DNA of 45,441 bases from a virus (IMGVR_UViG_3300008267_000272:1-45441), one strand, 5' to 3'. Positions 1,756 to 44,821 are shown, numbered from the stretch's first letter. Numbers and translations are program-made. Notes: a model not told the origin generated them from the letters alone.

Positions 1756-1769
1756 TGGTAACGTTACCA
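1756..1769. promoter_or_regulatory. perfect palindrome TGGTAACGTTACCA filling the whole gap between convergent early and late genes
   Basis: Seen directly. One of six exact copies of TGGWAACGTTWCCA. Confidence 0.75.
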
Positions 1770-4700
1770 TTACTGCTTCATTGACTTGCGGGAATCCTCT
1801 GCTTGTTGAGCCAACATAGAGATCAACTCTTTCATCCTGTCAATCTCTTCCCGCTTGGATGCACCATCCATGTTTGTATCGTTAGTAACCACAGAAATAT
1901 GTTGACGGATCTTGGCCATATTCTTAGCAGTCTTATCGTAGAACTTAGCCAAGGCGATCTTATCGCCCTTCTCCTCCAAGATCTGTCTGACTTTATCGGC
2001 ATCCCCGATCTCGGCGTAGTGACGCATATCTGCGAATGCTTGGCTGATCTCTTTATTGCTGTCGTAGAAGGCTGTAGCGTACTTAGATTGATTGGATGGC
2101 AGTGACTTCACCAGACCCACACTGAGCTTGTCTATCATCTTCGTATCAGGGTAAGAGCCATCTTTAAATGGCATGACTGCATAGTGTGAAGTTTCAGCAA
2201 TCGCACTACCCAGCCATCCAAAGTAAGCTTTGATAGCGTAGTCCATCTGCACAGGGGATAGACCCTCACCAGTAATGGAAGAGATTCCTCCGAGCAATTT
2301 GGCTAGTGGGCTAGTAGTATCCGCCGCCCGCTCTTGCTTAGACAATCTTTCCATGCCAGCAGATTCAATCGGCGCACCAGTGAACGAATCCTTGTTGGCA
2401 TATAGATCCACCAAAGGCTTGACAAACTGAGGTAGGTTGACCGCAAAGGTATCGGTAACCATACGACCCATAGACTGCTGGAACTGTTTACCCTCTGCGC
2501 CTTCATCAAAGATCTGTTCGGCTATGCGCTCGGCAATAGTTCCAAACGCACCAATCTCAAATGGTTTAGGCACACGCAAAGCGTATTCCATTCCGGGCAA
2601 CTTAAACCACCAGAAGTTATCACGATCCCACTCGTCACGCTTCTTGTACTCTTCATCATCTTTAAATGCAAAGTACAGGGCTAGAGATGCAAGGCACACG
2701 GCACTGGTAACAATGCTGAAGGATTCTGCTTTCTGCTTGTCTGTTTGCTCAATTGGTTTACCGGTGATGGTGTTGTAGAACACACGGCTAGTAGGCATGA
2801 TGCCGTCCCTGCCAAGCTTATACAAACCTTGCACACGGGCATTCAAGAACGGCACAACCTGACAGACCTGACGGAATGCCGGCCATGCCCCTGACATAGA
2901 GAAGTCAAGCAGGTCACGGGCGTAATAGGATGCCTCAAGATGAGACATTCCTTTATCCTTCATCTGGATATACAAAGCCATGCGGTTAGCGGATTCAGAC
3001 TTATTGCCCCATTCTTGGTATTTGTCCCAAGCCATCTGTAAACCCTTTTTGATTTTTTCTGGGGTATCCAAGATGTTCTCTGACTTAACTCCCTTGGACA
3101 CCAAGCGCTTAACCAGTTTAGCTTGATCACCCTCAACGTGAGTGCCAAATGTAAATACGCCACCGCCAGCTAGTGCGGATATATAAGCGGGACGATTACT
3201 AGCGCTTTCTTTCCATCCGTTAGCAATGTTGGTAAATGGATTCTTCTTCAGATCACTAACCGCCATAGCTTGTATAGAGTCACGGATCAAGTTTCTAACC
3301 TTAAAGGCAGGAGATATAGTGACACCAAATTGGAGCATATTCTTAAAGTCTCTGGCAACATCCAAGAACTTAGACTTTGGCCCCAGATATCCAATAGAAG
3401 AAATGGAATCTAAAAGCATGGGATCTAAGACGTTGTAGTAGGCGGGGCTACCATCTACCATGATCTTGATGTTCATCTTCCCAGACTTACCAGAGGCGGG
3501 CGTAGTCATCCAAGGTTCTATCTTGCCGTCCTTGTAAACCTCTGAGGATTCATAGATGTTTCCATCTTCATCTTTCTTACGGGTGATCACATTAACCAGA
3601 CCATCAACCATTACAAACTGTTGCTTGAGGTTTGGTTCTGCACCGCCCAAAGGAATGGCCGCATCTATCGTAGCCTTTGCCGCTTGCGCTTTCATGGATG
3701 CAGACAGGATGTGACTCCAGTTACGCAGAGTGTTTTCCATCAAGTCGGAGAAAGGACTCTCTCCACCCTTTAAAGCTTTAGAGAAGTGCTGGTTTGTCAG
3801 GCTAGATGCCGTCATCACCGCATCAATATCGCCGTCCTCCATCTCACGATAGAAAGGAATGTAGTTAATGTCGTTGACAAAACGCTCATACCCTATTGGG
3901 TTTTTCTTTAGGTCGGCTATCTTGTCTTCTAGCTCTTGGATCTGCTTTTCTTTTGCGTTATCAGATAAGTTTTCTTTGCTTTCAATAAAGCTAATCTGAT
4001 CTCGTATCCGCTCAATCATGTTGGCCGTTGAATCTATCAAGCCCATTTCAAGCGCAACCTTGAGGACGGACTCATTTATTTTTTGCATATCCTTACGGAC
4101 TTGCTCATAAAGTTGTTTGCGGGGCTTGCCATCCAAATCACCCTCAATGAGCTTGTCACGCTCGGCAACTAGCTTTGGCATTACATCTTTGCCATCTTTA
4201 TTGATAAACCTAGATCGCTTGTCAACAGGTAACTGTGATTCTCTGGTTAAAGCTTTCCACATATTAAAGCGGTCTACTTCATTGCCCAAAGGTTTCATAA
4301 TTTCAATCAAGCCCTTGGTATTGGGTTTAATGTTTAACGCGCCTCCGTCATTAAAGACTTCGCCGTGCATCATCAAACCTTCTAGCGCACCATCCACAGA
4401 CTTGGATAGGCGGGCTTTCATGTAGGCCTCTGGGCTGTATTCCCTGATGGTTCTAAACTGGTCAGCCATACCTTGCGCTAACTTTTTCCAGAAGTTATCA
4501 CGCAGACCATTGATGCGGTCAATGATGGTCTTCTTCTGTGGCGCATACACGGGATTAGCCGCATTCATAAAGTCATCAGGCACACCCTCAAAAGACTCAG
4601 GCTTTAAAGGAGGGCGCTTTTGCAAAGCAGTAGAAACCTTGGTCTTTATGTCATCAACCAAACTTCTATCAATCTCTTCTCTATCTACGCTGAATTCACC

Positions 4701-7700
4701 AGTGTTACTTATGGCAGATTTGATTTGCGTTGGATAGAAAGCAACCCAGTCATCCCTGTCAACGTTTCCATCCGTCATGCTGTTTCTGACAACCACCCCG
4801 TCATAGCCATTATCAATAAGGGCTTGTTTAAATTTTCCAACTGATGGATATGAATCCCTGTCATCTTGCAAATCTTCAAACCCTTCGTACTCCATTGGGT
4901 TTTGAATAGACAAGTGAACAAGCATTGTGTTGTCACCCTCTTTGCCCTCGGAGAAAGAAACAGCACCCTCTGCATTTCCCTCTTCATATTCTCGACCATA
5001 TAAAGATGGCGCAGTAAACCAAGAGCCTAACTTGCCCGTGTAGTTTGGATTGTTTGTTCTCTCTTTAATGTTCTGTCCAACATTAAATATGCCAAAGTTT
5101 TTATCTGTTGTATGGAATCCAACAAAAGGTTTTCCATTTCTGTTTACGGCTTTGCTTTCTCCAAACCACTTCTTAAACCGAGGATCAGAGTAGTAGTCTC
5201 TATCCTGATTAGCTTGTCTACTGAACTGGCGCGGTTCTGGAATGTTTTTGCGTTTGTAGAAATCTTCAATCAGTTTATTTTGAGCAACTATTGCATCATG
5301 CTCAGAGAGCTTGACAGCAGGAACATTCTTCTCGGCTTGCTCCCTATAGGCCATAGCTATGTTATAAATTACCGGCTCCGACAAACCCCCTAATGCTTTT
5401 TCAAACTGTGGATTTTCTTTTAGTAAGCGCACAGATTCATCCACTACAGCATTAAAACGCTTATTAGATTCTTCCTGCGCGTCTTTAATCCGCTGTTGTG
5501 ATTTTTTAAATTCTTCTGTTTTGCTTAATTCATCATATGCTTTAATTTGCATACGGTTGATTTCGTCTTGCGTAACGTATGGTTCGTTTCTTTCTTTAGA
5601 GTAAAGGAACTCTTCACGCTTGGCATACTTAACATTCTTAGCTAAGACAAAACGACCAACTTGCAATACTTCATCGGCAGAGACAACAGGTTGCTTAGTC
5701 TTTCTGTCGTAGAAATATGAATGGCGCAAAGGATCTAAGCTGACCTGTGACCACTCTGGATCGTTGAGCTTTTCTTTAACAGACTTGAAGATATCCTTTG
5801 GAGTCATGTTGACCCAGTTACCCTCAATGGTTTGTTGGGGAGCTTTTTGCCCTGCTTTACCAGCCACAGCTTGAGCAACATTGAAAGCCTTTTCTTCTGA
5901 ACGAATAGCAAACTCAACATTCTTTAAAGCACCAGCCGGTTTATAGCTAATGTTCTTTCCTTGGGTCGCGTTAGTGGCTGGCTTTCCTTCGTGGATAGAT
6001 ACAACGCTACCATTAATGCCATTCTTTTTACCCCACTCCAAAGCGGGTATATCCATTCTCAAGCCAACTCTCTTGCCCTCTGCAATTGGGGCGTTAACAA
6101 ACTTAGGATCTTTCTTCTGAGGTATTCTGTTAACCAGAATTTCTTCCATTAACTTTTCGTCAATTGGGCTTTCTAACTTATCCCCAAGAACCTCTGCAAT
6201 AGGTGCGTAGTAATCTACATACTCATCATATTGTTTCTTGGTAATGTTTCCAGCTTTGAGTTCTCTTGCGGCCAAAACAACTTGCTCGTTTCTTCCGGCA
6301 GGAATCTTAAAGTTAGCTGGCGCTGTCAGCACAGGTGGCTTGTTTGCTTTCTGCGGGGTGGCGGGCGTAGTGGGCGGCGCTGTCTTGGTCGCTGGAACTT
6401 TTGTTCCAAACTCAAATCCAGCGCTCTTAATCTTTTGTTGCAACTCACCTATTGGGGTGTTGAGTTCTGTATCCGTAATACGGGCAAGCTCTTCTAGAGC
6501 AGACTTGTACTTGGGTTCAATGTTTAATAGCTTGCGGAAAAATTCCACTAGCTTTGTCATGGCTGTCTCGCCCTTGCCAACATTAACTGTTGCCAACCAA
6601 TCTTGGAAGTCGTTTTCAGTTAAACCATAGGAAATTAGCTCAGAAACGTTTTGCAAATGAACTTGATCGGATGCTTTTGTGGCAAGGAAAGATGCTTTGT
6701 ATTTCAACAAGAAAGGACTTGGATTAGGAGAGTTCAACTCAATCCTTGCCGCTCTTCTGATTTTATTTAACAAAGGCGTAAGCTCTTGGAAGATAAGAGA
6801 AAGATCTTGGTTATCCATGTATTTGGATGCATACTTCCCTAGCGCATAGGTTTGCGGCTGGGTTGCGGCGTGTAGCAGTTCATGCAACAAGATGGAATAG
6901 GTTGTTCCAACGAGTGATTTACCACTTCTCTTGCTAATAACATCGTTGCCGTTGATCTTTACATCGGTACTTAGCTTATTGCCAGTCATCTTGAATACAG
7001 AAACGCCATAAGCGCCTTGCATTCCATCTTTGCCTTTTAAGACTTGGAAGGTAATTGGATAGCCAACGCTAACCATATCTTTAAGGCGATCACCAATTTT
7101 CTGAGCAATGTATTTGGCTACAGAGTTAGGCGCGTTATCTACCAACCAGTCACAGACTTGGCCAATATCCATCCCGTCAACTTCTTTTTCAATCTGCTGA
7201 CTAGACTTCTTGCTCTCAAAGATTCTTGATTCCTCTTGAGGCTTCTCTTCTTTGGGAGGCTCCTCTTGAGTAAATAGGTCGGGGCCGCCCTCTTCGCCCT
7301 TGAGAGTTTTAAAGATATCTTCTACTGGCAGTTTGGGTTTCTGTCCAAACATATCCTCACCAGCCTGAGACTGATCATAGGCGGCATCTGCCAAGTTACC
7401 AATCAACTCACCCATGCGTTTACCAGAGCGGGCATTGTCGGCAAACATACTAAGCACGGCCATTGTGTTGGGATCCATCCCAAGGTTGCCCTGTTTAACA
7501 ATGTCTTGTAGCTTGAGGCCGTTGCGCTTTGCATTAACTGCTAACTCAGCCGCCTCAATAATGTTCTTGCGAATGTCGTATTCACCAGCACCCTCTAACT
7601 TGGCAACACGGGATGCCGCTTTAGCCATTCCTTGGAGAATTAACTTGGCTTCTGGATCTGCCGCCTGTGCATACAGATCAATCAATGACTCACTGCCATA

Positions 7701-9659
7701 AGCCTTATAGAAGATGGCGTTGTTCAGTCGATCTATTGCCGTGGTGTTAGGCATTCCATTCTTGTCCATCAACTCGCCCTGCTCTTCTTTGGGCATACCA
7801 CGGACAAACTGGATCAAAGACTGGGTGTTAATGCTTCCATCTTCATTGAAAGAAAGGCCACCTAAATCAAAACGGTTTCCATCATTCTTTGCTGACTCAA
7901 CTGGGTTAAGTCTTAACTGACCCGCTACGTTAGAAACGTCCCCAATATCGGGCGTGATAAACGACTTGGGCATGATCCTGACTAGAACAGGCTTGCCCAT
8001 ATCCAATATAGCGCCTTGGTCAATACCATGCTGATTGTCATAAGACATGGCGGCTCTGTAGTCACCCGCCGTATCAAGACCATATGCCGCTTGCAATCCT
8101 GCAATACGACCATTACCAGCTACCGCACGGATGCCAGAAGTGGAAACGTTTCCATAGTCCTCATTAGTCCTGCCATCAGCAGTGTGTGATGTAAGCAACT
8201 GGTCAGCGTCAATGACAGCATATTGAACGGGTATTTTGCGTCCGTCAGATCCAGTAACAATATCTACCCTGCCCATTTGATTGGCTGGGATATCAATATC
8301 ACTGATAACCACGGGCGCACCAGAGCCTAGATCGGCAGAAGTCTTGAGCCTGTCGTAGTCAGGGTTAGAAGAAATGTTTTGCATCTGCTGAATAGATGCA
8401 GGGGTAGCACGATCACGGTTTTGCAAACGCTGGAACACATCTCCTGCACTATCGGGTAAACCCTGAGTGTAGTTTTGCAAGGCATCTAGGTCTTCTTGTG
8501 TAAGAGTGACCTTTGCCGTAGGTGCTTGAGGCGGTCTTACTGGTGGATTAATGTCAGGAACTTTGTCAACGGGAGGCTTGTTCTCTGGTAACTTTTGGTC
8601 AATGCTTGATGGCCTTTGAGCCAAACCAGAGACTCCGCCCATGCCAACACCGCCAACAGCGGCCATACCAGCCGCCTGACCTAAACCTTCGGTAAGGCTT
8701 TGCTCTGGGTTAACTTCACGCATAGCAAGGTTCTGACTGAACTTGCCACCAGTTTCTTCAACAACTTCACTAGCGGCCTCGCCTAATGCGCCTCTAGCTC
8801 CACCCATTAATTGCCCTGATTTTCCGGGAACGCCAGCAAATGTTTCTTCCAGTGTGCTTGCGCCGGGTAGCTTCTGAGCCAACAAGGAAATGATTGCACC
8901 AGATGCACCTGATGCACGGGCTAGATTCAATGCTTTCTGTGCGGCTTCTGCTTCTGGTACACCCCTATCTATCATTTCTTTATAGGTATTCTCATAAGCA
9001 CCAGCACCGATATCAGCACCCTGCTGTATAGCACCAGTACCTTTTGCCGCCGCTACACCTGCCGCACCAGCTTTTGCGGCAACAGCTTTCTTGGCGGCTA
9101 TCTCTGCGGCTTCTTTAGCCATACCACTAGAAACTAGGGCGGCGGCTTCTTTTGCGCTAAGACCTGCGGCAGTCAATGCGGCAGTACCACCACCAGAAAT
9201 CAAAGCAGGGATAAGCTGTGGAACTTGTTCCAACAAGAAACTAGCAAGCAGTGTTGGACTCTTAACTGTCTCAGCAAAAGCGGTGCCGAAGGCTGACAGT
9301 TGACCAGTCTTCTCTGCTTCTTGTATCTTCTTAGCCCTAGCCTCTTCCATAGCCTTGAGAGGATCAGACTTCATCTCTTCGCCATACTTCTGGATCTTTT
9401 CACCCAGACCTAAAGAGCCAGTCTTTTCAAAGTTACCAGTAGCCAAACCATATAGTTGGCCGGGCAGTTGAACTAAAGATCCAAGACCAGAAACCAAACT
9501 AGCAGGAACGTCCGTAGCCGCCTCACCCCATGTGCGATCTGTGCGCTTGGGTTCGCTCTTTTTTGTGTGCGTATATACAGCCCACTTCCAAGCCGTATTG
9601 GGATCGGGGGCATCTACTTCGTAGGTGACACCCTGTACGTCTACGTCATACTTTGCCAT
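1770..9659 (-). CDS. large polyvalent (probably virion-injected) protein with ddrB-like ParB, HExxH metallopeptidase-like, ADP-ribosyltransferase-like (ART-PolyVal) and C-terminal LPD38 domains
   Basis: LQNRDR...GAPVV...AVAGNGR (ParB-like, ~7700-8430); LLHELLH (~6870); FKKWFGESK...FHTT...GSWFT...GYDGVVV...QIKSA (~4690-5180); FWWFKLPG..RVPKPFEIG (LPD38, ~2000-2620). Confidence 0.8.
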   Translation of the reverse strand: MAKYDVDVQGVTYEVDAPDPNTAWKWAVYTHTKKSEPKRTDRTWGEAATDVPASLVSGLGSLVQLPGQLYGLATGNFEKTGSLGLGEKIQKYGEEMKSDPLKAMEEARAKKIQEAEKTGQLSAFGTAFAETVKSPTLLASFLLEQVPQLIPALISGGGTAALTAAGLSAKEAAALVSSGMAKEAAEIAAKKAVAAKAGAAGVAAAKGTGAIQQGADIGAGAYENTYKEMIDRGVPEAEAAQKALNLARASGASGAIISLLAQKLPGASTLEETFAGVPGKSGQLMGGARGALGEAASEVVEETGGKFSQNLAMREVNPEQSLTEGLGQAAGMAAVGGVGMGGVSGLAQRPSSIDQKLPENKPPVDKVPDINPPVRPPQAPTAKVTLTQEDLDALQNYTQGLPDSAGDVFQRLQNRDRATPASIQQMQNISSNPDYDRLKTSADLGSGAPVVISDIDIPANQMGRVDIVTGSDGRKIPVQYAVIDADQLLTSHTADGRTNEDYGNVSTSGIRAVAGNGRIAGLQAAYGLDTAGDYRAAMSYDNQHGIDQGAILDMGKPVLVRIMPKSFITPDIGDVSNVAGQLRLNPVESAKNDGNRFDLGGLSFNEDGSINTQSLIQFVRGMPKEEQGELMDKNGMPNTTAIDRLNNAIFYKAYGSESLIDLYAQAADPEAKLILQGMAKAASRVAKLEGAGEYDIRKNIIEAAELAVNAKRNGLKLQDIVKQGNLGMDPNTMAVLSMFADNARSGKRMGELIGNLADAAYDQSQAGEDMFGQKPKLPVEDIFKTLKGEEGGPDLFTQEEPPKEEKPQEESRIFESKKSSQQIEKEVDGMDIGQVCDWLVDNAPNSVAKYIAQKIGDRLKDMVSVGYPITFQVLKGKDGMQGAYGVSVFKMTGNKLSTDVKINGNDVISKRSGKSLVGTTYSILLHELLHAATQPQTYALGKYASKYMDNQDLSLIFQELTPLLNKIRRAARIELNSPNPSPFLLKYKASFLATKASDQVHLQNVSELISYGLTENDFQDWLATVNVGKGETAMTKLVEFFRKLLNIEPKYKSALEELARITDTELNTPIGELQQKIKSAGFEFGTKVPATKTAPPTTPATPQKANKPPVLTAPANFKIPAGRNEQVVLAARELKAGNITKKQYDEYVDYYAPIAEVLGDKLESPIDEKLMEEILVNRIPQKKDPKFVNAPIAEGKRVGLRMDIPALEWGKKNGINGSVVSIHEGKPATNATQGKNISYKPAGALKNVEFAIRSEEKAFNVAQAVAGKAGQKAPQQTIEGNWVNMTPKDIFKSVKEKLNDPEWSQVSLDPLRHSYFYDRKTKQPVVSADEVLQVGRFVLAKNVKYAKREEFLYSKERNEPYVTQDEINRMQIKAYDELSKTEEFKKSQQRIKDAQEESNKRFNAVVDESVRLLKENPQFEKALGGLSEPVIYNIAMAYREQAEKNVPAVKLSEHDAIVAQNKLIEDFYKRKNIPEPRQFSRQANQDRDYYSDPRFKKWFGESKAVNRNGKPFVGFHTTDKNFGIFNVGQNIKERTNNPNYTGKLGSWFTAPSLYGREYEEGNAEGAVSFSEGKEGDNTMLVHLSIQNPMEYEGFEDLQDDRDSYPSVGKFKQALIDNGYDGVVVRNSMTDGNVDRDDWVAFYPTQIKSAISNTGEFSVDREEIDRSLVDDIKTKVSTALQKRPPLKPESFEGVPDDFMNAANPVYAPQKKTIIDRINGLRDNFWKKLAQGMADQFRTIREYSPEAYMKARLSKSVDGALEGLMMHGEVFNDGGALNIKPNTKGLIEIMKPLGNEVDRFNMWKALTRESQLPVDKRSRFINKDGKDVMPKLVAERDKLIEGDLDGKPRKQLYEQVRKDMQKINESVLKVALEMGLIDSTANMIERIRDQISFIESKENLSDNAKEKQIQELEDKIADLKKNPIGYERFVNDINYIPFYREMEDGDIDAVMTASSLTNQHFSKALKGGESPFSDLMENTLRNWSHILSASMKAQAAKATIDAAIPLGGAEPNLKQQFVMVDGLVNVITRKKDEDGNIYESSEVYKDGKIEPWMTTPASGKSGKMNIKIMVDGSPAYYNVLDPMLLDSISSIGYLGPKSKFLDVARDFKNMLQFGVTISPAFKVRNLIRDSIQAMAVSDLKKNPFTNIANGWKESASNRPAYISALAGGGVFTFGTHVEGDQAKLVKRLVSKGVKSENILDTPEKIKKGLQMAWDKYQEWGNKSESANRMALYIQMKDKGMSHLEASYYARDLLDFSMSGAWPAFRQVCQVVPFLNARVQGLYKLGRDGIMPTSRVFYNTITGKPIEQTDKQKAESFSIVTSAVCLASLALYFAFKDDEEYKKRDEWDRDNFWWFKLPGMEYALRVPKPFEIGAFGTIAERIAEQIFDEGAEGKQFQQSMGRMVTDTFAVNLPQFVKPLVDLYANKDSFTGAPIESAGMERLSKQERAADTTSPLAKLLGGISSITGEGLSPVQMDYAIKAYFGWLGSAIAETSHYAVMPFKDGSYPDTKMIDKLSVGLVKSLPSNQSKYATAFYDSNKEISQAFADMRHYAEIGDADKVRQILEEKGDKIALAKFYDKTAKNMAKIRQHISVVTNDTNMDGASKREEIDRMKELISMLAQQAEDSRKSMKQ

Positions 9660-11193: not shown

Positions 11194-12972
11194 TTATGCT
11201 GGTTTGGTTTGACCCAAATTAGCCAATGATTGATATAGCGCCATCAAGCCTTGCACCTGACCAGCAAGCTGACTAAGTTGCGTCTGGTTGGTTGTACTGG
11301 CAGTAGTTGTAACTGGTAGACCTTGGAGCAAATCTTTTTGGTATTGAACCATCTTATAGGGAAAGTCCCTTTGCTCTTCAAACTGGGTTTTGTCTGCGGT
11401 AATGCCTTGTTGCTCAATGTCACGCTGAGTAGCACCGGCAGTTCCAAGGGCTTGTTGAACTTGTAGTTCGCGGTTTTTGTCGGCATTGAACTGACCTGTG
11501 GCCTTATCAAAAGCCGTGGCATAACCAGATCCAATTGCTTTGTTCTGTTCAGACAACAAGGCGCGTTGAGTTTCTGTATCCATCAAAGCCTGACGAGATC
11601 CGCCAAATGCCCCTGCTTGGGTAGCTTTGTTAGCGTTACCAAGTTGGGTGATCTGTGATTGACGGCGTAGTTCTTCTAACTGAGGATTGAGCGCCGCAGA
11701 AATATATGGGTTCATATAATTCTGTGCTTGGGTAGCATTGAACGTACTGTTGTCAGCCAAGTTAGACAGGCCGCTAAACTGTTTGGTTTGAAGTTCAGAT
11801 GCACCCGCAGTCAGTGGCCCCGTATAAGACTGATAAGGGGCGTTAGATAGTGCCGCGCCTTTGGACAAATAGTCAGAAACATATGGCCCCGCCCATGAGG
11901 ACAGAGAGCCTTCCGAAGAAGTGCCAAGGCTAGGGATGGCCGTAGATCCTGCGCTTGTTCCTGTTGTACCTACAGATCCCGTTGTGCCGCCCTCAACAAA
12001 TTTAGCAATACCACCAGAGGCATAACCAACTTGACCGCCGGGCATGAACTTGTCTGGGTTAATGCGCTTACCTTGCTGGGTTGTACCAGTCCGAGCCTTG
12101 CGGATACGAGCCATCATGTCGTAGAGTTTGTTTGCGCCAGCATCAGAATTACCATTGCCAAGGTGAGAAACCACATCAGCAGGGATTACAAACTCGCCAT
12201 GACTCAAAGCGGCTTTTTGTTTTCCATCTATGGAGGAAGGGATCTTGTCAGCCATTCCGTCTGTTGCACCTTGTAAGTAACGAGCCGTTCCACCCCTAGC
12301 CATGCCCTGCGCCTGTGGCACAGGCATCAAAGAGGACACCCCAGATGGTGGTAACGTTTCCATTGCTTGAGCTGGAGCAGTAACGGCAGGTGCCGGAGTA
12401 GGTGTATACCCTGATAATATGCCACTTGCTTGTTCGCCAACAGCAGTTCTGGCGGCGGCAACGTTTGCAGGATTGGCAAAGGCGGTATCTGTAAAGTACT
12501 GTCTACCCATGCTTCCGGGTCTGCGGTTTGGATCTTCATAGTTAACCCGCCCACGGACAGCTTGTAAGTCCATGGGGATAGTACCCTTATAGCCGGGGGT
12601 TTGCACCTTATCCGCACCAGTTACGGCCTTAATTCCAGCGGCGGCAGTAGCTAAAGCCGCCCAGTTGGTATTGCCTTTAGCGTCTGTAAAAGCACCTTTG
12701 AGTTGGCTATAAATCTTGTCAGTTATAGAAGAACCAGTAGGGGCTACGGGCTGTCCACGCAAAGAAGCAAACGTATCCTTTGTAATACCAGACTTGTCAG
12801 CATTGGTCATGGCATCGTATTGCGAACCCGTCAGAGAGTAATAATCATTAGTCTCTGGGTTTACGCCATACTTTGTGCCATCTGCCATCGTGTAAATAAT
12901 GTCACCAGCAATAGTCTCGGTCTTAACCGCTTGGTCTGCAATATATTGCACACCAGTTATTTCATAGCTCAT
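11194..12972 (-). CDS. putative internal virion/ejection protein with a 'DGxxDxIP...LSxGEFVIPADVVS' domain
   Basis: MARGG-...-LSHGEFVIPADVVSHLGNG, followed by YMNPY...AGAFGGSRQ typical of podovirus-like DNA-transfer proteins. Confidence 0.6.
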   Translation of the reverse strand: MSYEITGVQYIADQAVKTETIAGDIIYTMADGTKYGVNPETNDYYSLTGSQYDAMTNADKSGITKDTFASLRGQPVAPTGSSITDKIYSQLKGAFTDAKGNTNWAALATAAAGIKAVTGADKVQTPGYKGTIPMDLQAVRGRVNYEDPNRRPGSMGRQYFTDTAFANPANVAAARTAVGEQASGILSGYTPTPAPAVTAPAQAMETLPPSGVSSLMPVPQAQGMARGGTARYLQGATDGMADKIPSSIDGKQKAALSHGEFVIPADVVSHLGNGNSDAGANKLYDMMARIRKARTGTTQQGKRINPDKFMPGGQVGYASGGIAKFVEGGTTGSVGTTGTSAGSTAIPSLGTSSEGSLSSWAGPYVSDYLSKGAALSNAPYQSYTGPLTAGASELQTKQFSGLSNLADNSTFNATQAQNYMNPYISAALNPQLEELRRQSQITQLGNANKATQAGAFGGSRQALMDTETQRALLSEQNKAIGSGYATAFDKATGQFNADKNRELQVQQALGTAGATQRDIEQQGITADKTQFEEQRDFPYKMVQYQKDLLQGLPVTTTASTTNQTQLSQLAGQVQGLMALYQSLANLGQTKPA

Positions 12973-12974
12973 AT

Positions 12975-15461
12975 TTAACCTCTTCTGCGTAGAAGCCCCG
13001 GTAGGCCACGAATTGACCCTCCCGAAGCGATTTTAACCGTGCCGTCTTGTGTTTGTGTTGACTTTTTGTCTTGCTGTTCTTTAACCAATTTACTAAAGTA
13101 ATCAGTCTCCAAAGGCGCACCTAACTCAATAGGATTTGTAAACTCTGGAGATATACCAGAACCTACAACTTGGGGTTGTTGTATTTGCTGGTTGCCTTCT
13201 GATGCCAAAGCTTGTATCTGTGGAACTAGATTAGCTATCCCCATTTGGAGCTGTGCTTTGGTATTGTCAATTTGTTGTTGCGGTGTTTGTGTTGTATTGG
13301 TTGCCGCCGGCCTATTAATCATTGAACCTGTCGGCCCCCAAACAGTACCGACTTTACCCGTGTATGGCTTTGGAGTTGCTGGTTTTTGCCCAACAAAATT
13401 ACCATATTGATCAAACTTATTGCCAGATGGATCAGACCATACACCCTTGCTGTAACTCCATCCAGTCATGTTTTGAACGTCACCAGACTGGCTTAAATTC
13501 TCCCAAGGCTGGGCTTCCTGCTCTGTCAGAGTAGCGTTATATCCAATTGGCTTACCCTCTATGTCTAGCATTTTCCCATCTGGACTAACCCAGTAACCTT
13601 CTTTGGTTAACTGCCAATCCCCCATTCCCTGACCAGATGTTCCAAGGAATTGCCAAGGCTGAACTTCTTCCGTAGGGTCAAAACTAGCACCCTGCGACAT
13701 AGCTGTAATTAACCCAAGGTCTGTTTTGTCTACCTTGTTGTCTTGGTTAATGTCATAGGCAAGATCTACTGGGCGCTTACCAGCCACAATGTCTTTGATT
13801 CTTGTAATGTCAGACTCGGCTACATCCCTACCAGCAGTACCTGTGTAAGTCAGCCGTCCGTTAGCCCCCTCAATAGGCGTAGCACCCTTGAAAATATCCG
13901 TTACATCAGGAGCCATTGCAGAGGAATAGACCTGTTTACCGCCTTGGTAAATAGTCCCGTCCTGCCTGAGTTCCATTCCGTTATCAAAGTACAGAACACC
14001 AGCTTCCCCGTCTGGCTTGGAAATAGGCGCAATAGTTCCGTTCTTGATAGCGTCAAGAGTTATGTTTTGCGTAGTGGTTTCAGATACTTGCGTTGCGTAT
14101 CTAAGATCTGCGGCAGTGGCGGCATCAACTGCGGCTCTTTGTGCGTCAATAGTTTTCTGTAGCGCCTCAGAAGACTGGTAAAGTTTCCAAGCGGTAGAAC
14201 CTTCTTTGTTTGCATCCGTTGGCGCACCAAGGTTGTAATCATTCAAGATATCAACCTTACCCTTTAGCGTCCCAGCAGTAGCGGCAAGAGAGTTATTTTG
14301 TGTGTTGTACTTATCAATAACTGACTTGTTTTCTGTTTGTATTTTGTTGGCCTCAACAGCGGCATCATTTGCTATCTTTGCTTGCTTTTCAGCTTCTGCC
14401 CCAGCCGCATTCCTTGCATCAATACTTTGCCCTGTATTGTTATAGATAGCCATTTGCTTGTCATATTCAGTCTTGGCAGTATTAAATGCATCTGTATAGG
14501 GAGTAATCTTGTCAACGACTGGTTGCATTTCCTTGCTGTAGTTATCAAGATATGCTGTACGAGTAACATTAAATTCATCCACTTGTTTTTGAACTTCTTC
14601 TTTTTGTTTTGTCCAATCTTGGTAATGCGCGTCATATTCGTCTGCCTTTACTTTGGCAGAAGAAGTTAGATCTTGCACACTCTTATAGGCATCCTTGGCT
14701 TCTTTCGCAACCTTTGTTGCGCCCGTGTCTATTAGCGTATTTGCTATGTAGTTACCTATTACTGTAGAAGGATCTTTACCAGAAATTGCGGCGCTTATAC
14801 CAGTAGAAACGGTTGCATTTATGGTCTTCATCTGCTTGTCAGATAAGCCCCAATCCTTTTGTAAACCTAGTTCACTACTCAATGAGGTGACACCAGACGA
14901 TACAGAACCAGATGCAAAGCCATCTGCTATTGCTTGGTTAACGTCCTTACCCGTCAAACTAGCCCGAATGCCAGCAACAATAGATGTGTTTAATCCACTA
15001 GCTACGGCAGTTCCTATTGCTGGAGTAGTGGCTGAACCAATCTTTTCACCAATGCTTCGCGTAATATCCTTTGTTGTCATTGGCTTTTGTACTACTTCAC
15101 CAGTTTCTGGATCTATGGTATCGGTGCTTCCAATTTCCGCATATTCCAGCCCTTTGGTTACCGCCCATGAAATAGCGGCAGACTTCATCATGTCTTCTAC
15201 ATTACCGCCCCTTGATGCGGTAATAGCGGCGGAAGTAACAAACGGCGGTATACCCACAGACATACCTGCATATATGGCAATCGTTGGGAGAGGATCCCGA
15301 ATAATGTTATCTACTGTTTTGTTAATTGTCTGAAGAACAGTGGTAACAGCGCCGCTTACGCCGTTTAGTGTTTTTTGAACAACGTTACTAAGTGTGCTAC
15401 CAGCATCATCTAACGTTTTACCCGGATTTTTAACTATGTTTGCTACCCAATTCCACCCCAT
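12975..15461 (-). CDS. putative internal virion protein (hydrophobic N-terminus, coiled coil, dockerin/EF-hand-like loop)
   Basis: ORF track 12975..15491; ATG 15461 (MGWNW) preferred because it lies just after the upstream stop. Contains DINQDNKVDKTD. Confidence 0.55.
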   Translation of the reverse strand: MGWNWVANIVKNPGKTLDDAGSTLSNVVQKTLNGVSGAVTTVLQTINKTVDNIIRDPLPTIAIYAGMSVGIPPFVTSAAITASRGGNVEDMMKSAAISWAVTKGLEYAEIGSTDTIDPETGEVVQKPMTTKDITRSIGEKIGSATTPAIGTAVASGLNTSIVAGIRASLTGKDVNQAIADGFASGSVSSGVTSLSSELGLQKDWGLSDKQMKTINATVSTGISAAISGKDPSTVIGNYIANTLIDTGATKVAKEAKDAYKSVQDLTSSAKVKADEYDAHYQDWTKQKEEVQKQVDEFNVTRTAYLDNYSKEMQPVVDKITPYTDAFNTAKTEYDKQMAIYNNTGQSIDARNAAGAEAEKQAKIANDAAVEANKIQTENKSVIDKYNTQNNSLAATAGTLKGKVDILNDYNLGAPTDANKEGSTAWKLYQSSEALQKTIDAQRAAVDAATAADLRYATQVSETTTQNITLDAIKNGTIAPISKPDGEAGVLYFDNGMELRQDGTIYQGGKQVYSSAMAPDVTDIFKGATPIEGANGRLTYTGTAGRDVAESDITRIKDIVAGKRPVDLAYDINQDNKVDKTDLGLITAMSQGASFDPTEEVQPWQFLGTSGQGMGDWQLTKEGYWVSPDGKMLDIEGKPIGYNATLTEQEAQPWENLSQSGDVQNMTGWSYSKGVWSDPSGNKFDQYGNFVGQKPATPKPYTGKVGTVWGPTGSMINRPAATNTTQTPQQQIDNTKAQLQMGIANLVPQIQALASEGNQQIQQPQVVGSGISPEFTNPIELGAPLETDYFSKLVKEQQDKKSTQTQDGTVKIASGGSIRGLPGLLRRRG

Positions 15462-15933: not shown

Positions 15934-16280
15934 CCGACTTTCCAATTTGTACCGTCTGAATAAACGGGGGTTTTAACCGAGCCACCCGTGGCAACAGTTG
16001 ATCCAAATACAGGAGCTAGGGCATCAGACACAAACGCTCTAGCCCCAATTCCAGATGTAGCGGCGCTTGGTAACGTTACCACCGTGTAAACGGTAAGAGC
16101 AGGAATTATCCCGCTGTCTGTATTTAGTTGGTCTAATATGCCCTGTATACGATTAAAGTACAAACGCAAAACATTATTAAACTGGTTTTGATATGCGTCA
16201 GAATAACCTTGTGTAGGCGATGGAAGCGCTGGAGCGGCAATCCTATTGAGATTAGACTCAGAGGTAACAATGAATGTCAT
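15930..16280 (-). CDS. small tail-associated protein
   Basis: APALPSP..Y..QNQFNNVLRLYFN N-terminus, and a C-terminal LPSA...GARAFVSDA...PVYSDGTNWKVG tail-fibre-like motif. Confidence 0.6.
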   Translation of the reverse strand: MTFIVTSESNLNRIAAPALPSPTQGYSDAYQNQFNNVLRLYFNRIQGILDQLNTDSGIIPALTVYTVVTLPSAATSGIGARAFVSDALAPVFGSTVATGGSVKTPVYSDGTNWKVG

Positions 16281-27934: not shown

Positions 27935-28123
27935 TTAAAAATTACCAGTTTCGCCACCTACAGGCGGCATTTTCTTCAGAGTCACATGTACAGAACGATG
28001 AACAAGTTCACCCTCTAGCCAGTATTCTGTCCATGTGGTTGTTTCGTTATTGTTGTCAATGTCACCCTCTCGCTTTTCTAGCAAAGAGTCATCCATTTCG
28101 CCCTTGGTAGTTGTTACTATCAA
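27935..28123 (-). CDS. small conserved hypothetical protein
   Basis: 62 aa, TTKGEMDDSLLEKREG...EYWLEGELVHRSVHV; overlaps the upstream stop. Confidence 0.65.
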   Translation of the reverse strand: MIVTTTKGEMDDSLLEKREGDIDNNNETTTWTEYWLEGELVHRSVHVTLKKMPPVGGETGNF

Positions 28124-30048: not shown

Positions 30049-30983
30049 TAGGGCGTACTCCCACCAATGAACTGCTGTCTAGGAACAAAACGCAACGGGG
30101 CTTTTTCATGGTCTTCACCAGCCGCCAAATTAAACTGTTCATCGTATGCCTGTTTCAGCATATCCAAACGGCCTTGCAACTCAGGAACTTTCATGGCTAT
30201 GTAGTAAGCCAATCCTGAGACAACACAAGGCAAGAAACGGAAATTCATATCAGATATTTGGATACCAGAGCCGGCATCTTGAATCCTACGCATTCTGTAA
30301 TACACAAGCTGGTAGGTAGTAGAGTTATCTGGGGTCGGCCATACTGTTACCGCAGGTAGTTGGGGTACATACACAGCCGTTGCCGTTGTATGGGTAGCCG
30401 CCGTTGTATAAGACTGTCCACGGAATACATTACCTATCGTATTGCCGTCTATGTAGTTGTAATACATGATCTCAGAATCCAACTTAATGAACCCAGATCC
30501 AGCTAATCCAACAGTGGAAGTTAGCGTAATTGTTGTGGCATCAATGGTAACGTTTCCATTGGTAGCCAAAGTAGTCGGGCTAGTTTCTCCAGACAAACGC
30601 TGAATCCATATCTGGATTGGTCTAGCCTCAGTCAATTTATTAGGAATAGTGGCATAGGTAGAAACACTAATACGGCTGATTGTTAAGTCAGCTTGGGTGC
30701 TTGCAGAGTTAGCGCCTGTGCGAATTACATGATCTAGCAGATCAATAGTATCCAATGGCAAAGAATAAGTATTCAATCCGGGTGTTAGGTCAATCACACC
30801 CTGTTCAATCGTCCACATATTTAAACCACGGTTAGCCCACTCAATGGTCATTATGTTCATCGACCTACGAGCCGTTCTTAGATCGTAGCCTGTACGCATT
30901 TCTCGACCCGCACGTTCCCATGACTCCTCGGCTATCTCCGTGAAGTCCATGTTAAATGCGGTTGCGCCAGTGGTATATGCCAT
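30048..30983 (-). CDS. head-tail connector/adaptor-type structural protein
   Basis: EE..ERAG...GYDLRTARRS.N....EWANRGLNMWT, Y..IPNK, WPTPD, RFLPC.V.GLAYY. Confidence 0.7.
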   Translation of the reverse strand: MAYTTGATAFNMDFTEIAEESWERAGREMRTGYDLRTARRSMNIMTIEWANRGLNMWTIEQGVIDLTPGLNTYSLPLDTIDLLDHVIRTGANSASTQADLTISRISVSTYATIPNKLTEARPIQIWIQRLSGETSPTTLATNGNVTIDATTITLTSTVGLAGSGFIKLDSEIMYYNYIDGNTIGNVFRGQSYTTAATHTTATAVYVPQLPAVTVWPTPDNSTTYQLVYYRMRRIQDAGSGIQISDMNFRFLPCVVSGLAYYIAMKVPELQGRLDMLKQAYDEQFNLAAGEDHEKAPLRFVPRQQFIGGSTP

Positions 30984-32478: not shown

Positions 32479-33102
32479 TTAGCACATCTTCCCGCGAGTC
32501 TTACCACGCTGGGCTATACCGTCACCACGGCTAGAGGCGCTGGAAACTTTTCCACCTTTTGCCAATTTGTCACGGGCGGCGGCTTGCTCTCGTTCTTTTT
32601 GACGGCTAACTGGTCTAGTAGATTCGTAGTTCTGTTTAGCTTTGGAAAGCAAATTACCAATAGAAGAACCTACATCACCAATAGCTTCAGCACCCGAAGA
32701 AGAGCGAATGCGTTCATTAATAGATCTGGTATCAGTTTTACCGCTACCTGATCTAGCGTCTGCAAGATTGCTTTCCATACTTTGTTTCATGCGCTCATTA
32801 GCTGACATTTTGGTCACATCAGCAGGAGCAGAAACAGGAGCTGGCGCACTTGTTTTAGTAACTTCGGCGGGAGCAGGAGGCGGCATAGGAGCGGCTGATT
32901 CTCCACGGCGGGTAAAACCACGTTCTTTATTTAAAAAGTCACGCAAACTTAAACCTGACTTGGCAAGTTCCTCCTTGGTAACAACACGTTGCTTTTTAGC
33001 GGATGGTGCTGGCGCATATTGACCAGTACCGCTAGAGCCACCGTAGTCTTTACTATCTACCATAGAGCCTTCTTCGCCCTCGTAACCCTTAACTTTTTTC
33101 AT
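32479..33102 (-). CDS. low-complexity protein with C-terminal RGDGIAQRGKTRGKMC tag
   Basis: 207-aa ORF. Confidence 0.7.
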   Translation of the reverse strand: MKKVKGYEGEEGSMVDSKDYGGSSGTGQYAPAPSAKKQRVVTKEELAKSGLSLRDFLNKERGFTRRGESAAPMPPPAPAEVTKTSAPAPVSAPADVTKMSANERMKQSMESNLADARSGSGKTDTRSINERIRSSSGAEAIGDVGSSIGNLLSKAKQNYESTRPVSRQKEREQAAARDKLAKGGKVSSASSRGDGIAQRGKTRGKMC

Positions 33103-39068: not shown

Positions 39069-39077
39069 AGGGGGAAA

Positions 39078-40441: not shown

Positions 40442-41630
40442 CCTTAACTCTTAATCCTCTAGACTTCAATCCACCCGGCAAATTGGAAAGAGTTCCAGCA
40501 TCAATCAACTGACGTATCAGTGATGTACCAGCCCTAGCGTATCCGCCGATTAAATGTATATATCCAAATCCATAAGCACCAAAGCCCGGCACATAATCAT
40601 ACTGAACCATATGCTGGCGCTTTAATCTTAGATCGTCTTCCTCATCCCAGTTACGATAAACAGCTAGAACTTTTCCAGTGCCGGCATCTATGCTTACTAT
40701 ATAAGGTACAGCTATCTCATCCTCGTCTTCATAGCCGGGAATATCCAGATCAATCTGCACTTCATAGACCTGATATCTATCATCATCAGTTAAAGAGTAA
40801 CCCTGTTCTTCGGCCTTCTTTTTTTCTACGTCAGTATGAATAGCAACTGGTTCTCCAAGATCTACATCTCTGTAAAAGCCAGCGGCTTGTAGTTTACGGA
40901 TATCGTTCTTGGTCTTACGCATTACATGGGTAACACGCTCCGCCGTTCTAGCTCCACTAGATCCATAGGGGATGATCACATCCTCTGCTGGTATGTATAT
41001 AGAGGTCTGACGATTTAGCGATGGATCAAAGTAGACTTTCTTAAAAGCACTACCAGATAAGCCGAGGTTAAATAACATCCGCTCATGCTCTGGACGATAC
41101 TCAGGCATAGCCTCAGTTAACTGATAGTTCATATCAGTTCTAACCCGCTCGGCGGCATCTTCTTTTAATTTATTAATAGCTCCAATGATCTCAGTCTTCA
41201 CGGGGCCGTGAGAGGGGAAAGTCTCAATAATTGTTTCCGACTGAAACCTAACAGCGGCCTCTGTCAATATAGTTGAGAAAACACCACAGGCTCCGTTCCA
41301 AGGTTCTGTTCTCTCTTCATACTTCATGCCAAGGACTTCTAGTCCCTTGACTAACATCTCCACCCAGTCTTTACGCGAATTGATATCCGCCTCAACTAAC
41401 TCTACAACTTCGGATCCTAGTTTCTCTAATTCCCCTTCGTCCATAAACTCAGCCAAGTTTGAATCAAACTCTTCACCATCTTTAGATTCTGTCTCAGGCT
41501 CTATCTCAATCTCCAGCCCGCCCATTCCTATATGAACACTGTCTGGGTTTTCAATTTCAATCTCCAGATCAGGCTCAGTTAAAGATTCCAATCCTTGTGG
41601 TGCTTCGTACAAACTTTTAGCGATTGCCAT
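40371..41630 (-). CDS. portal protein, N-terminal part (frame lost after ...FRDVDVPS)
   Basis: FDSNLAE, PW.GACGV..L.EAAVRFQ, GSAFKKVYFD, GFG.YGFG..HLIGG, RQLIDAGTLSNLPGG. Confidence 0.85.
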   Translation of the reverse strand: MAIAKSLYEAPQGLESLTEPDLEIEIENPDSVHIGMGGLEIEIEPETESKDGEEFDSNLAEFMDEGELEKLGSEVVELVEADINSRKDWVEMLVKGLEVLGMKYEERTEPWNGACGVFSTILTEAAVRFQSETIIETFPSHGPVKTEIIGAINKLKEDAAERVRTDMNYQLTEAMPEYRPEHERMLFNLGLSGSAFKKVYFDPSLNRQTSIYIPAEDVIIPYGSSGARTAERVTHVMRKTKNDIRKLQAAGFYRDVDLGEPVAIHTDVEKKKAEEQGYSLTDDDRYQVYEVQIDLDIPGYEDEDEIAVPYIVSIDAGTGKVLAVYRNWDEEDDLRLKRQHMVQYDYVPGFGAYGFGYIHLIGGYARAGTSLIRQLIDAGTLSNLPGGLKSRGLRVKGDDTPIAPGEFRDVDVPSQRYEC

Positions 41631-41638
41631 ATGTATCC

Positions 41639-43129: not shown

Positions 43130-43133
43130 AGTC

Positions 43134-43475
43134 TTACTCTATATTCCTAAAATTAACATACACAGGCCGAATACTCCTCTTACCCTCTATCCTCTTCACC
43201 ACCCCTAGATCACACAACCTGTCCACAATCTTCTTCGTATTCGCTACGCTACTCTTACTCCTCTGATTACCAATATCCCTAAGAGTAGGACTAAACCCAT
43301 ACTTCTTCCACCACTCATCAATGATTAAAAATACCTCATTCTGTACTGGACTCATTTCCACTCCCATACATTCTTCAAAACTTAACTCCTTCATCTTAGG
43401 AGCCATGCCTCTATTTAATACTATTTTCTTCGACCAATGGAAACGTTTCCATTGCCCTCCCTCTAAAGTTTTCAA
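43134..43475 (-). CDS. LexA-type winged-HTH DNA-binding protein lacking the peptidase domain
   Basis: SPVQNEVF..I......GFSPTLRDIG...SS......V.RL...G...R..G.RSIR. True start may be ATG 43406. Confidence 0.75.
   Translation of the reverse strand: MKTLEGGQWKRFHWSKKIVLNRGMAPKMKELSFEECMGVEMSPVQNEVFLIIDEWWKKYGFSPTLRDIGNQRSKSSVANTKKIVDRLCDLGVVKRIEGKRSIRPVYVNFRNIE
43435..43454. promoter_or_regulatory. 20-bp perfect palindrome CAATGGAAACGTTTCCATTG (operator-like)
   Basis: Seen directly. Longest copy of the TGGWAACGTTWCCA motif, just upstream of ATG 43406 of the HTH gene. Confidence 0.7.
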
Positions 43476-43502
43476 AATATATACCCCCCTACCCCTTTTG
43501 TA

Positions 43503-44219
43503 TTATTTTTCATAGGGGGTGGGTTCGCTGTGAGAGGGGGGTGGGTCTTCCATACTGGAAAAATCATCGGATTGTTCGAGTGGAATAGTATGTTTAGGAA
43601 GTTCGGGAGTCCCATTTTTATTCGGGTTGGTGGGGGTCGGGTGGGGTTCGCTGTGGATGGAATCACTAGCTAACTCTGCCAGTAGTTCATTAGGGTCTAT
43701 GGTTTCTATGTCGGTAGCATTGCCATTAAACATTAAACGAATCTGTTTCAATAGTTCAGCCTTTGCGTTGTCGCTTGATCTAATGATTGTCGTTTCTCTT
43801 CTTTCGGTGAAGGCTGATACTTCGGTGACAGTTCCTAAAACCTTTGCGCTTGCTACCTTCGTTGCCTGTTTCGCTTCGGGGTCTATCAACACGCTGACAA
43901 GGGATTGAATGACTAATGCTCTTAAAGCCTCAGGTGTTCTATGTTTCTGCGCCTCTAATGCAAGGGAGAGGGCTTTTGTCTCCGCACTTATTCGGGGATC
44001 TCTGGCAAGCCTTGAACCCGCATCACCCGCAGTCTTAGCCTTTGCCTTGCTAGAGTAAACCTTCCTATAACTTCCCGCCTTTGTATTGCCCTTTGCCAAC
44101 TCTAGGGCGAATGTCTTTTGTTTATGGGTTAACTCTCTGGAAACGGCTTTACCTAATATATCTGCCATTGGGACTTGTTCTAATCCTTCCCTTATTTGCT
44201 TACGGGTTAATTTGTGCAT
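43503..44219 (-). CDS. terminase small subunit-like protein
   Basis: LTHKQKTFA..LA.G.TKA.SYR.VY...A.RL..DPRI HTH-like region upstream of terL. ATG 44219 preferred because it lies downstream of the promoter. Confidence 0.65.
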   Translation of the reverse strand: MHKLTRKQIREGLEQVPMADILGKAVSRELTHKQKTFALELAKGNTKAGSYRKVYSSKAKAKTAGDAGSRLARDPRISAETKALSLALEAQKHRTPEALRALVIQSLVSVLIDPEAKQATKVASAKVLGTVTEVSAFTERRETTIIRSSDNAKAELLKQIRLMFNGNATDIETIDPNELLAELASDSIHSEPHPTPTNPNKNGTPELPKHTIPLEQSDDFSSMEDPPPSHSEPTPYEK

Positions 44220-44252
44220 GGACTGGTTCGCTTCGCTGTTAGACACGGGCGC

Positions 44253-44281
44253 ATTGTAGGGTAACAAATAGGCAAAATCAA
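44253..44281 (-). promoter_or_regulatory. sigma70-type promoter for the leftward (late) operon
   Basis: TTGATT (44281-44276), 17-nt spacer, TACAAT (44258-44253). Confidence 0.6.
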
Positions 44282-44346
44282 TCGGTTATGCAAAGCCCAT
44301 AAAAATAATTGTGGCAAATAATGCGTTTTTTAATACTTTCGCTTAC

Positions 44347-44375
44347 TTGACAGGGTCAACCGATATATCGATACT
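44347..44375 (+). promoter_or_regulatory. strong sigma70 promoter for rightward (early) genes
   Basis: TTGACA (44347-44352), 17-nt spacer, GATACT (44370-44375). Confidence 0.8.
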
Positions 44376-44441
44376 TGCGTTGTAGGTGCTACATGACAGC
44401 ACAATGTAGCAGTTACATAAACCCCTAACGAAAGGCACAAC

Positions 44442-44756
44442 ATGAAAACGCAGACGATATTAAACAACCTCACACTAGCACAAGCCGAGGCGTGGAATGA
44501 GACAAGCGAAAAATTCTTATTTGTCGATTATGAAATTGTCTCGCAGTATGGAATCAGTCTAAACGCTTTACCGAATAACAATCTGCTAGAGGCTATCGAA
44601 GGCAAGTTAGAGAAACTTCTAAACAACAAAGCAATTCCCCTGACTTATGACGAATGGGAAGGGTTCGCCCGTTCTATGCAATGGGCGGAAGATTTGCCCC
44701 AATGGGATAAAGATCACGACAAAACGCCAACGCCCGTGACTTGGGTAACTATTTAA
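44442..44756 (+). CDS. hypothetical early protein
   Basis: 104 aa, SD GAAAGG, first gene after the promoter. Confidence 0.7.
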   Translation: MKTQTILNNLTLAQAEAWNETSEKFLFVDYEIVSQYGISLNALPNNNLLEAIEGKLEKLLNNKAIPLTYDEWEGFARSMQWAEDLPQWDKDHDKTPTPVTWVTI

Positions 44757-44766
44757 TGTATCAATT

Positions 44767-44788
44767 TAAGCCCCCCTTTGGGGGTTTA
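44767..44788 (+). terminator. GC-rich hairpin between early genes (weak terminator or processing site)
   Basis: UAAGCCCCC-CUUU-GGGGGUUUA; no long U-tract. Confidence 0.4.
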
Positions 44789-44821
44789 GGTGGAAACATT
44801 ACCAACCACGAAAGGCACAGC

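Follow-up and report, generated by a model that had tools for sequence, protein, structure and literature searches.

The IncP-1 plasmid RK2 carries 12 operators (OB) for the KorB protein, according to the title of a reference in PMC11790492, and the centromeres of the linear prophage N15, whose SopB is phage-encoded, and of pMF1 are scattered, partly intragenic inverted repeats served by a ParB-family protein (PMC3235114, accessible part of the text). Orphan proteins of the ParB-CTPase fold have been noted on mobile elements, the accessible portion of PMC12704722 giving no DNA sites for the phage orphans, and HerB is presented in the available part of PMC13370423 as a ParB-like transcription regulator without a consensus site. 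Here we describe a 14-bp palindrome, TGGWAACGTTWCCA, dispersed along the viral contig IMGVR_UViG_3300008267_000272, all 45,441 nucleotides of which make up the window of this study. We propose, with a probability of about 0.58, that the palindromes are bound by a phage protein combining a ParB fold, a helix-turn-helix (HTH) and a coiled coil, and that this protein, working without ParA, would regulate lytic transcription in a KorB-like way.

Six exact and four one-mismatch copies of the palindrome, mostly intragenic, were found in the window, each at the position given by an earlier reading of the sequence without database searches (hereafter the sequence-only reading). Together with the weaker matches they are as follows.

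1756-1769: exact copy, taking up the gap between the convergent middle (PAPS-reductase-like) and late (polyvalent protein) transcripts.
6239-6252: one-mismatch copy within the polyvalent protein gene, identical in 4/5 aligned relatives.
8141-8154: exact copy within the polyvalent protein gene, a perfect site in 3/3 motif-bearing relatives and with 6 mismatches in the motif-less relative G003.
12349-12362: exact copy within a 592-aa ejection-region gene.
14176-14189: one-mismatch copy within an 838-aa gene.
16068-16081: exact copy within a 116-aa gene, identical in 3/3 aligned relatives.
30545-30558: exact copy within a 311-aa tail/adaptor gene, extending to CAATGG...CCATTG.
32541-32554: one-mismatch copy close to the 3' end of a 207-aa gene.
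43438-43451: exact copy at the 5' end of a LexA-type HTH gene, at the head of the HTH-terminase-portal operon, extending to CAATGG...CCATTG.
44791-44804: one-mismatch copy, intergenic, 5' of an early-gene ribosome-binding site.
4757, 11628, 26535, 31353 and 38340 (span 4757-38353): five two-mismatch copies, about 3 being expected by chance.

The counts lie far above those of shuffled genomes. Against 15 observed matches at up to two mismatches, 100 dinucleotide shuffles gave 0.48 +/- 0.66 (maximum 2), and 300 synonymous-codon shuffles, in which every protein was kept, gave cumulative counts at zero, one and two mismatches of 1.08, 2.67 and 5.16 (maxima 2, 6 and 11) against 6, 10 and 15 observed. 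Because two non-coding sites stay fixed in the codon shuffles, shufflable copies were also counted on their own: 5 vs. 0.08 exact, 8 vs. 0.67 at up to one mismatch and 13 vs. 3.2 at up to two. No extra excess was seen at three to four mismatches in the codon-shuffle comparison, and a tandem-repeat or amino-acid artefact as the source of the palindromes is ruled out by the codon-preserving shuffles. Where motif-bearing relatives can be aligned, identity is 86% at the ten sites (422/490 bases) and 66% in their flanks (688/1,050). Since the sites are better conserved than their flanks and exceed the codon-shuffled expectation, the constraint acts on the DNA, in agreement with the sequence-only reading; the peptides that it listed across copies (YGNVST, METLP, VVTLP and NGNVTI) are confirmed and lie in three different reading frames, and the two extended copies it mentioned are those at 30545 and 43438. 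The two-mismatch copies at 11628, 26535 and 38340, which are not kept in most relatives, may be chance matches.

At 1756-1769 the palindrome spans the entire interval separating two convergent stop codons, and the position of this site is conserved in the family. This copy and the one at 44791 before a ribosome-binding site are indeed non-coding, as had been claimed, whereas the same claim for 43438 depends on the start codon of the HTH gene: a start at ATG 43407 leaves the site non-coding, and a start at the in-frame TTG 43475 places it in codons 9-13. Several relatives start the HTH gene upstream of the equivalent ATG, and a sigma-70 consensus scan at 43438 called no promoter.

The window is the whole contig, 72% complete and without end repeats, and represents the late arm, with genes for terminase, SU10-type portal, GroES, capsid and polyvalent protein, of a roughly 62-kb podovirus whose capsid is 64% identical to that of Pelagibacter phage HTVC023P and 74% to that of Pag-Yong1/MinM2. 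A collinear relative, G001, aligns with both window ends at 84-99% and fills an 18.5-kb gap between them. Small early genes and recombination genes share this arm of G001 with a Toprim primase and an SF2 helicase; immediately before the helicase lies the gene for a 261-aa protein, called parB below.

45441 (window): contig end, start of the missing 18.5-kb early/replication arm (from collinear G001).
G001:29548-30333 (L145:9548-10333), minus strand: ParB-fold/HTH/coiled-coil gene, about 10 kb beyond the window end.

Ten sites at up to one mismatch occur in G001, one inside parB and one at the primase 5' end; those of the arm are at 27975, 29821, 35031 and 40022, the last being window site 1756. 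We infer that the window's own strain carries parB as well; four public runs holding window DNA also hold pieces of the gene, one of them as a 1,481-nt contig across it at about 95% identity. No RNA run is listed among the public runs holding window DNA.

The G001 protein was modelled from an alignment of 28 homologs (predicted local distance difference test, pLDDT, 84). The predicted model begins with a ParB/Srx domain and a tri-helical HTH, with helices at 119-126 and 130-141; a loose linker then leads to two long helices, the C-terminal one of 55 residues. The best solved Foldseek matches are ParB, Noc and KorB (8qa8/8qa9), with E values of 1e-7 to 1e-5, and PHROG 1033 matches the protein at E 7e-21. 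The order of a ParB/Srx N-terminal fold followed by an HTH is present, PF02195 being precomputed on many homologs, with no Pfam match on the G001 protein itself. Residues Q14, R16, G54, R57 and N89 are invariant in the 28 sequences, Box I (QPR) and Box II (GERR) of 4umk being aligned; F55 takes the place of the catalytic glutamate E93 of M. xanthus ParB, D53 precedes G54, and Box III, placed by motif position, reads A88-N89 instead of E126-N127. Absence of the catalytic glutamate locks the closed state in M. xanthus ParB (10.1101/2021.05.05.442810, accessible part), and the nucleotide preference of ParB-CTPase-fold proteins is not predictable from sequence, according to the same portion of PMC12704722. 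With its pocket residues kept and the catalytic glutamate lost, the phage protein may close as a nucleotide-gated sliding clamp. The homologs start at the nucleotide-binding fold, no N-terminal ParA-binding extension appearing in the alignment, and ParA (PF13614) was found in 0/30 records, including 0/23 at least 90% complete, with a profile that matches 14/14 controls. Tyrosine integrase (PF00589), the integrase class covered by the search to the exclusion of serine integrases, was found in 0/23 near-complete records and 1/30 overall (G065, a phage of another type). parB lies within the replication operon, the order parB-helicase-primase being kept in all family records holding these genes and in MW202545, and the family counts 2,433 homolog clusters among 7,988 scored. 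The ParB+HTH module also occurs within longer open reading frames of 355-567 aa in G062 (11488-, 52715-), G065 (8613-9320) and G090 (15072-), which are unrelated, GC-rich or temperate phages; in G065 two exact sites lie one on either side of the module.

The AACGTT core is common to the palindromes of the relatives, whereas the arms vary with the recognition helix of the ParB-fold protein. A DRE..SH[PV][FY] helix goes with TGGW arms, SHT[FY] mostly with TGGC, SYTF with TGAC, S[AG]E[FY] with TTGC/TCRC, DNE or DAE..SHPF with CAGW or CTGT, and SAPL, SVTL or SPPF with CATA; a TQPY helix goes with a 20-bp palindrome, one copy of which lies immediately before the gene. In a column scan over 55 records, 22 lineage clusters and ten proteins, Arg120 accompanied an outer TG in 14/14 clusters and other residues a non-TG end in 8/8, so that the residue-120 column ranked 1 of 2,537 columns for the outer TG. 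On the Arg120/His130 background, Pro or Val at 131 goes with W at position 4 in 282/286 half-sites and Thr131 with C in 56/78. The combination of Thr131 and TGGC is found in three clades, one of them nested among Pro131 relatives in a quick tree built without the HTH. The exchange can be followed at single places. Position 43438 is the most conserved site position in the family, and the syntenic site at the HTH gene changes its palindrome along with the ParB helix type. The orthologous places of 8141, 30545 and 43438 have 6-8 mismatches in relatives with other helix types; at 30545, 7/8 motif-bearing relatives keep the site with at most two mismatches, and two relatives with other helices show 7-8. 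In the primase, most relatives read WKRYP, WKRYR or WKRYA, and only high-copy lineages read WKRYQ or WKRYH, which completes a site.

Across relatives, sites and parB tend to occur together. A collection scan with one motif form, covering 15/64 parts, left 47 searchable records, among which ParB is present in 11/17 with at least three sites vs. 6/30 with one or two (Fisher p 0.004, the records not being independent). Six site-rich records without ParB are exceptions: four are without helicase and primase as well, one is a late-arm fragment of 18 kb and one is G048. In a uniform de novo search of records of at least 40 kb, dispersed palindromes (at least 4 copies, span at least 35%) were called in 17/33 ParB-positive vs. 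0/10 ParB-negative records; the comparison leaves aside G000 and G031, in which the arm is missing, and five GC-rich records, the calls in G048, G062, G090, MT835519 and Pag-Yong1 being disregarded because the null fails there. Of 12 simulated genomes, 11 gave no call and one a call of three copies. The genomes G000-G002, G031, G033, G035, G050 and G075 carry 9-21 sites at up to one mismatch, and G029, which shares only ParB with 35 query proteins, yet has six sites, one of them in parB. Besides G001 and G002, none of 24 relatives chosen by HTH or capsid similarity has more than one site. G065, G046, G066, G107, G109 and G115-G118 were covered by pattern counts or 20-kb loci only. Conservation of the motif in related phages and its co-occurrence with a particular DNA-binding gene, two of the checks named by the sequence-only reading, are supported.

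ParB-negative relatives have palindromes of their own, which cluster in 3-18% of the genome, with the exception of a three-copy call in G041. These lineage-specific clusters of 3-10 copies (G008:32841-40990, G014:18309-23618, G010:21863-25794, G011:2493-5385 and G012:29958-31781) are probably operators of another regulator. Arrays of repeats spaced 110-300 bp with short palindromes were also seen at G003:28231-28687, G002:6709-7356, G005:53708-56954 and G018:9689-10418.

Site positions were mapped in 24 genomes. The 20 that include the HTH gene all carry a site immediately upstream of that gene or in the interval from it to terL; 15/24 carry one in the divergent middle region ahead of the PD-(D/E)XK operon or at the VRR-NUC gene, 9/24 at the middle/late convergence (window 1756) and 12/24 in or beside parB. 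Where a genome has one to four sites, they are mainly at these boundary places; high-copy lineages add intragenic sites, spaced at random. Of 140 sites 19 are intergenic, against a non-coding share of about 4.5%.

Similar proteins occur in cultured phages beyond the family. Virulent Vibrio phage CHOED, the only cultured phage among five GenBank matches (34% over 140-159 aa; GenBank names its homolog after StrR), carries 22 copies of a 21-bp palindrome (KJ192399; L559, L560), and its relatives, Aeromonas phages MQM1 (OQ628262) and 1233 (OR359403), carry 20 and 23 copies of a related one, with a copy 25-43 bp before the start of the homolog. The palindromes of this group, 21-22 bp long, are more evenly spaced than random (coefficient of variation, CV, 0.43-0.51), 16-19 of them lying within 150 bp of a gene start; because of this even spacing and the proximity to gene starts, promoters of a phage RNA polymerase stay an alternative for this group. 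MW202545 has eight copies of a 17-bp palindrome in its first 50 kb, two of them inside parB, the first 50 kb being the part covered in this record and in HTVC023P and DSL-LC04. No dispersed palindrome was found in MW202898, which has a ParB homolog (29%). The CHOED announcement (PMC4110762) makes no mention of dispersed palindromes, and the MQM1 genome paper (PMC10410586) does not contain the terms palindrom, ParB or motif. CHOED has in addition a ten-copy motif, possibly promoters; MQM1 has one site at the genome end, and the C-terminus of the ParB-like/HTH protein of this group weakly resembles a DnaJ domain (E 1.6e-4 in MQM1).

It is very probable that the ParB-fold protein reads the palindromes, and if it does, a mainly transcriptional role appears probable. 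A dimer would read each half-site through Arg120, His130 and residue 131. It would bind core sites at operon boundaries, namely the head of the HTH-terminase operon, the divergent middle-gene control region, the middle/late convergence and its own gene, and binding there may time or damp transcription, that of its own gene included. The LexA-type HTH gene is likely one of the regulated genes. High-copy lineages, that of the window among them, would then have added 5-20 sites by synonymous and even amino-acid change, extending loading genome-wide.

Several observations weigh against this proposal. The window's own contig shows no parB, and no KorA-like partner was identified, although no KorA search as such was made. 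In the column scan residue 131 comes second (tied) of 942 columns, with only four positive units, His130 lies outside the top ten columns for base 3, the lineage clusters are not fully independent and the quick tree has long branches. The Thr131 genomes G086 and G088 mix C and A, and G034 and G051 carry variants with an AATATT core. In a nearest-neighbour test the helicase predicted the motif class in 35 of 39 cases and the helix in 33.3, a test that is uninformative because the majority class dominates. Of the 33 ParB-positive genomes, 16 do not exceed three dispersed copies, and no dispersed palindrome was called in the de novo search for SPSF/SPTF and SNTL helices. Two unrelated phages have sites and no ParB of this family: G048 (45.7 kb, 76% complete) three exact sites and G041 (complete, 61 kb) two near-sites. 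The tally of sites at the HTH gene is partly circular because six seeds came from the HTH position, the further copies of these seeds falling mostly at other operon boundaries. Finally, 86% of the sites are intragenic, which a pure promoter-operator role does not need, and an even spacing in the window family is not supported, the sites being no more even than random (CV 0.73-1.46).

The intragenic majority is what commends the main rival, in which the same protein and sites do a physical job: clamps every few kb would coat the replicating genomes, bridge them through the coiled coil or gather them in a compartment by tethering, or else would protect them against nucleases and silencing proteins of the host. 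Several lineages have 10-26 sites per genome, parB is fixed in the replication operon, the C-terminal helix is long, the glutamate whose absence locks the closed state of the M. xanthus protein is missing, and the CHOED group is evenly spaced; many relatives, however, have one to four sites, at operon boundaries, and the spacing in the window family is not even. As the main function this is doubtful, but coating, bridging or shielding may be the purpose of the extra intragenic sites. A broader form of the idea, also tentative, is that virulent phages of unrelated families turned a ParA-less ParB into a self-recognising, long-lived clamp that coats or condenses their own DNA during lytic replication, with loading sites possibly written along the whole genome even by change of protein sequence. 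It would amount to a phage system of chromosome organisation whose residue-to-base code is natural and readable and whose cultured carriers are CHOED, MQM1 and 1233. That the protein is instead a replication initiator or a helicase/primase loader, with the in-gene site marking the origin, as iterons lie inside lambda O, would fit the conserved parB-helicase-primase order and the sites in the parB linker and at the primase 5' end. This is unlikely, as there are one or two such sites and no iteron array, no AT-rich stretch adjoins the in-gene site, several relatives have no site in parB, and the CHOED homolog is among the first-entering genes, about 20 kb from the primase.

The AACGTT dyad resembles the operators of LacI-family repressors, and together with the sites of G048 and G041 this likeness would suit a host protein as the reader, or a ParB that borrows host ParA or SMC to position the phage DNA; the palindrome arms, however, track a phage-encoded helix and the protein lacks the extension by which ParA is bound, so that we regard both as quite unlikely. 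Most unlikely of all is that ParB merely travels along with another phage protein that reads the sites. The candidates were the following two, named by the sequence-only reading, and a ribbon-helix-helix-like protein of 107 aa.

43134-43475, minus strand: LexA-type HTH gene, tested as site reader and rejected.
8292-8465, minus strand: ddrB-like ParB domain of the polyvalent protein (aa 399-456), tested as site reader and rejected.

The HTH gene does bear a site at its own 5' end, the HTH and ribbon-helix-helix genes are present in most ParB-positive genomes, and in the nearest-neighbour test the helicase predicted the motif class as well as the helix did. Against this, the identity of the HTH protein is unrelated to motif class, being 79-97% in seven phage pairs with different palindromes and 37-68% in four pairs with the same palindrome, and no column of the HTH or ribbon-helix-helix protein came first in the column scan. 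The motif-rich genomes G033, G035 and G050 yielded no ddrB-ParB domain, which was found in the motif-poor G003, G083 and G085, and G029 has its six sites with only ParB in common with the query set. A gene outside the window, the third candidate of the sequence-only reading, is the likely reader because the motif co-occurs and co-varies with the ParB-fold gene of the missing arm; the idea of parS-like sites for a phage protein thus named the right class. The functions attached to it are not supported: a stoperator system in view of the lack of integrase and of sites that are palindromic, not asymmetric, classical segregation in view of the absence of ParA from the 23 near-complete genomes, and protection by an injected protein in view of the place of parB in the replication operon, outside the virion genes.

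Some further features of the window may be recorded. A PAPS-reductase-like gene at 1018-1755 closes the middle operon, is present in 4 of the other long records tested and has a possible role in DNA modification. A translation-start motif, ACGAAAGGCACA-N-CATGAAAAC, recurs at 44424-44444 and 44804-44825, ahead of consecutive early genes and once more at the contig end. The sequences GCWGC, CCWGG and GGWCC are wholly absent, CGWCG is nearly absent and several six-base palindromes are avoided; this restriction-site avoidance is strong, is common only to the closest lineage and could fingerprint the host. A GTDB genome scan for the ParB family returned only two 3-kb contigs and hence no host.

Phages commonly encode orphan ParB-fold proteins, most of whose targets are unknown; the large family described here gains a specific predicted site. 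It offers a natural specificity code with replicated residue-base switches, in which a few boundary sites have been multiplied tenfold into coding DNA in some lineages. If the proposal is true, KorB-type long-range control or ParB-type DNA organisation enters the biology of lytic phages, and new orthogonal ParB/site pairs become available for DNA labelling. The cultured virulent carriers CHOED, MQM1 and 1233, with 20-23 palindromes each, make the system testable.

The closest described system is KorB of RK2, which likewise joins a ParB fold, an HTH, a linker and a C-terminal domain, with the structural match to 8qa8/8qa9, and likewise has roughly a dozen palindromic sites, some close to promoters and others distant from them, on a replicon of similar size (PMC11790492, accessible part). 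Unlike KorB, the phage protein has no IncC/ParA, no ParA-binding extension and no KorA-like partner so far identified; its phages show no sign of lysogeny, DGFHR replaces GERR, the C-terminus is a long coiled coil, and copy number ranges from 1 to 26 among relatives. Repression of promoters at long range in the manner of KorB may be suggested by the positions of the sites. Noc, an orphan ParB with dispersed sites (NBS), and ParB/parS share the fold and switch specificity through a few HTH residues, as the accessible text of PMC7383237 describes, but the phage system differs in its site, in a shorter DNA-binding domain with a simple tri-helical HTH and in being a phage replicon. Compared with ParABS partition, it lacks a cognate ParA (0/30) and the N-terminal ParA-binding motif, and its palindromes, some of them in or beside parB, co-vary with the helix and may be read by the HTH. 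StrR-like regulators have an N-terminal ParB-like domain, a tri-helical HTH and a helical C-terminus too and, unlike the phage protein, act on biosynthetic clusters (PMC10886168, in the part available). Mycobacteriophage stoperators also provide many sites for one phage protein along the genome and inside genes, but they are asymmetric and read by the monomeric immunity repressor of temperate phages (PMC9283540, accessible part), whereas the present sites are palindromes in phages without integrase. In the literature covered, mostly that outside subscription papers and the supplements of PMC12704722, no description was found of a lytic phage in which a ParB without ParA goes with palindromes along the genome. 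The N15 and pMF1 systems serve ParA-dependent partition of plasmid prophages or plasmids, as far as the available text of PMC3235114 goes, while ParA and integrase are absent from 23/23 near-complete genomes here. Dispersed sites of ParB-family proteins are thus already known from RK2, N15 and pMF1, and a ParA-less version with palindromes throughout the genome of a lytic phage would be new.

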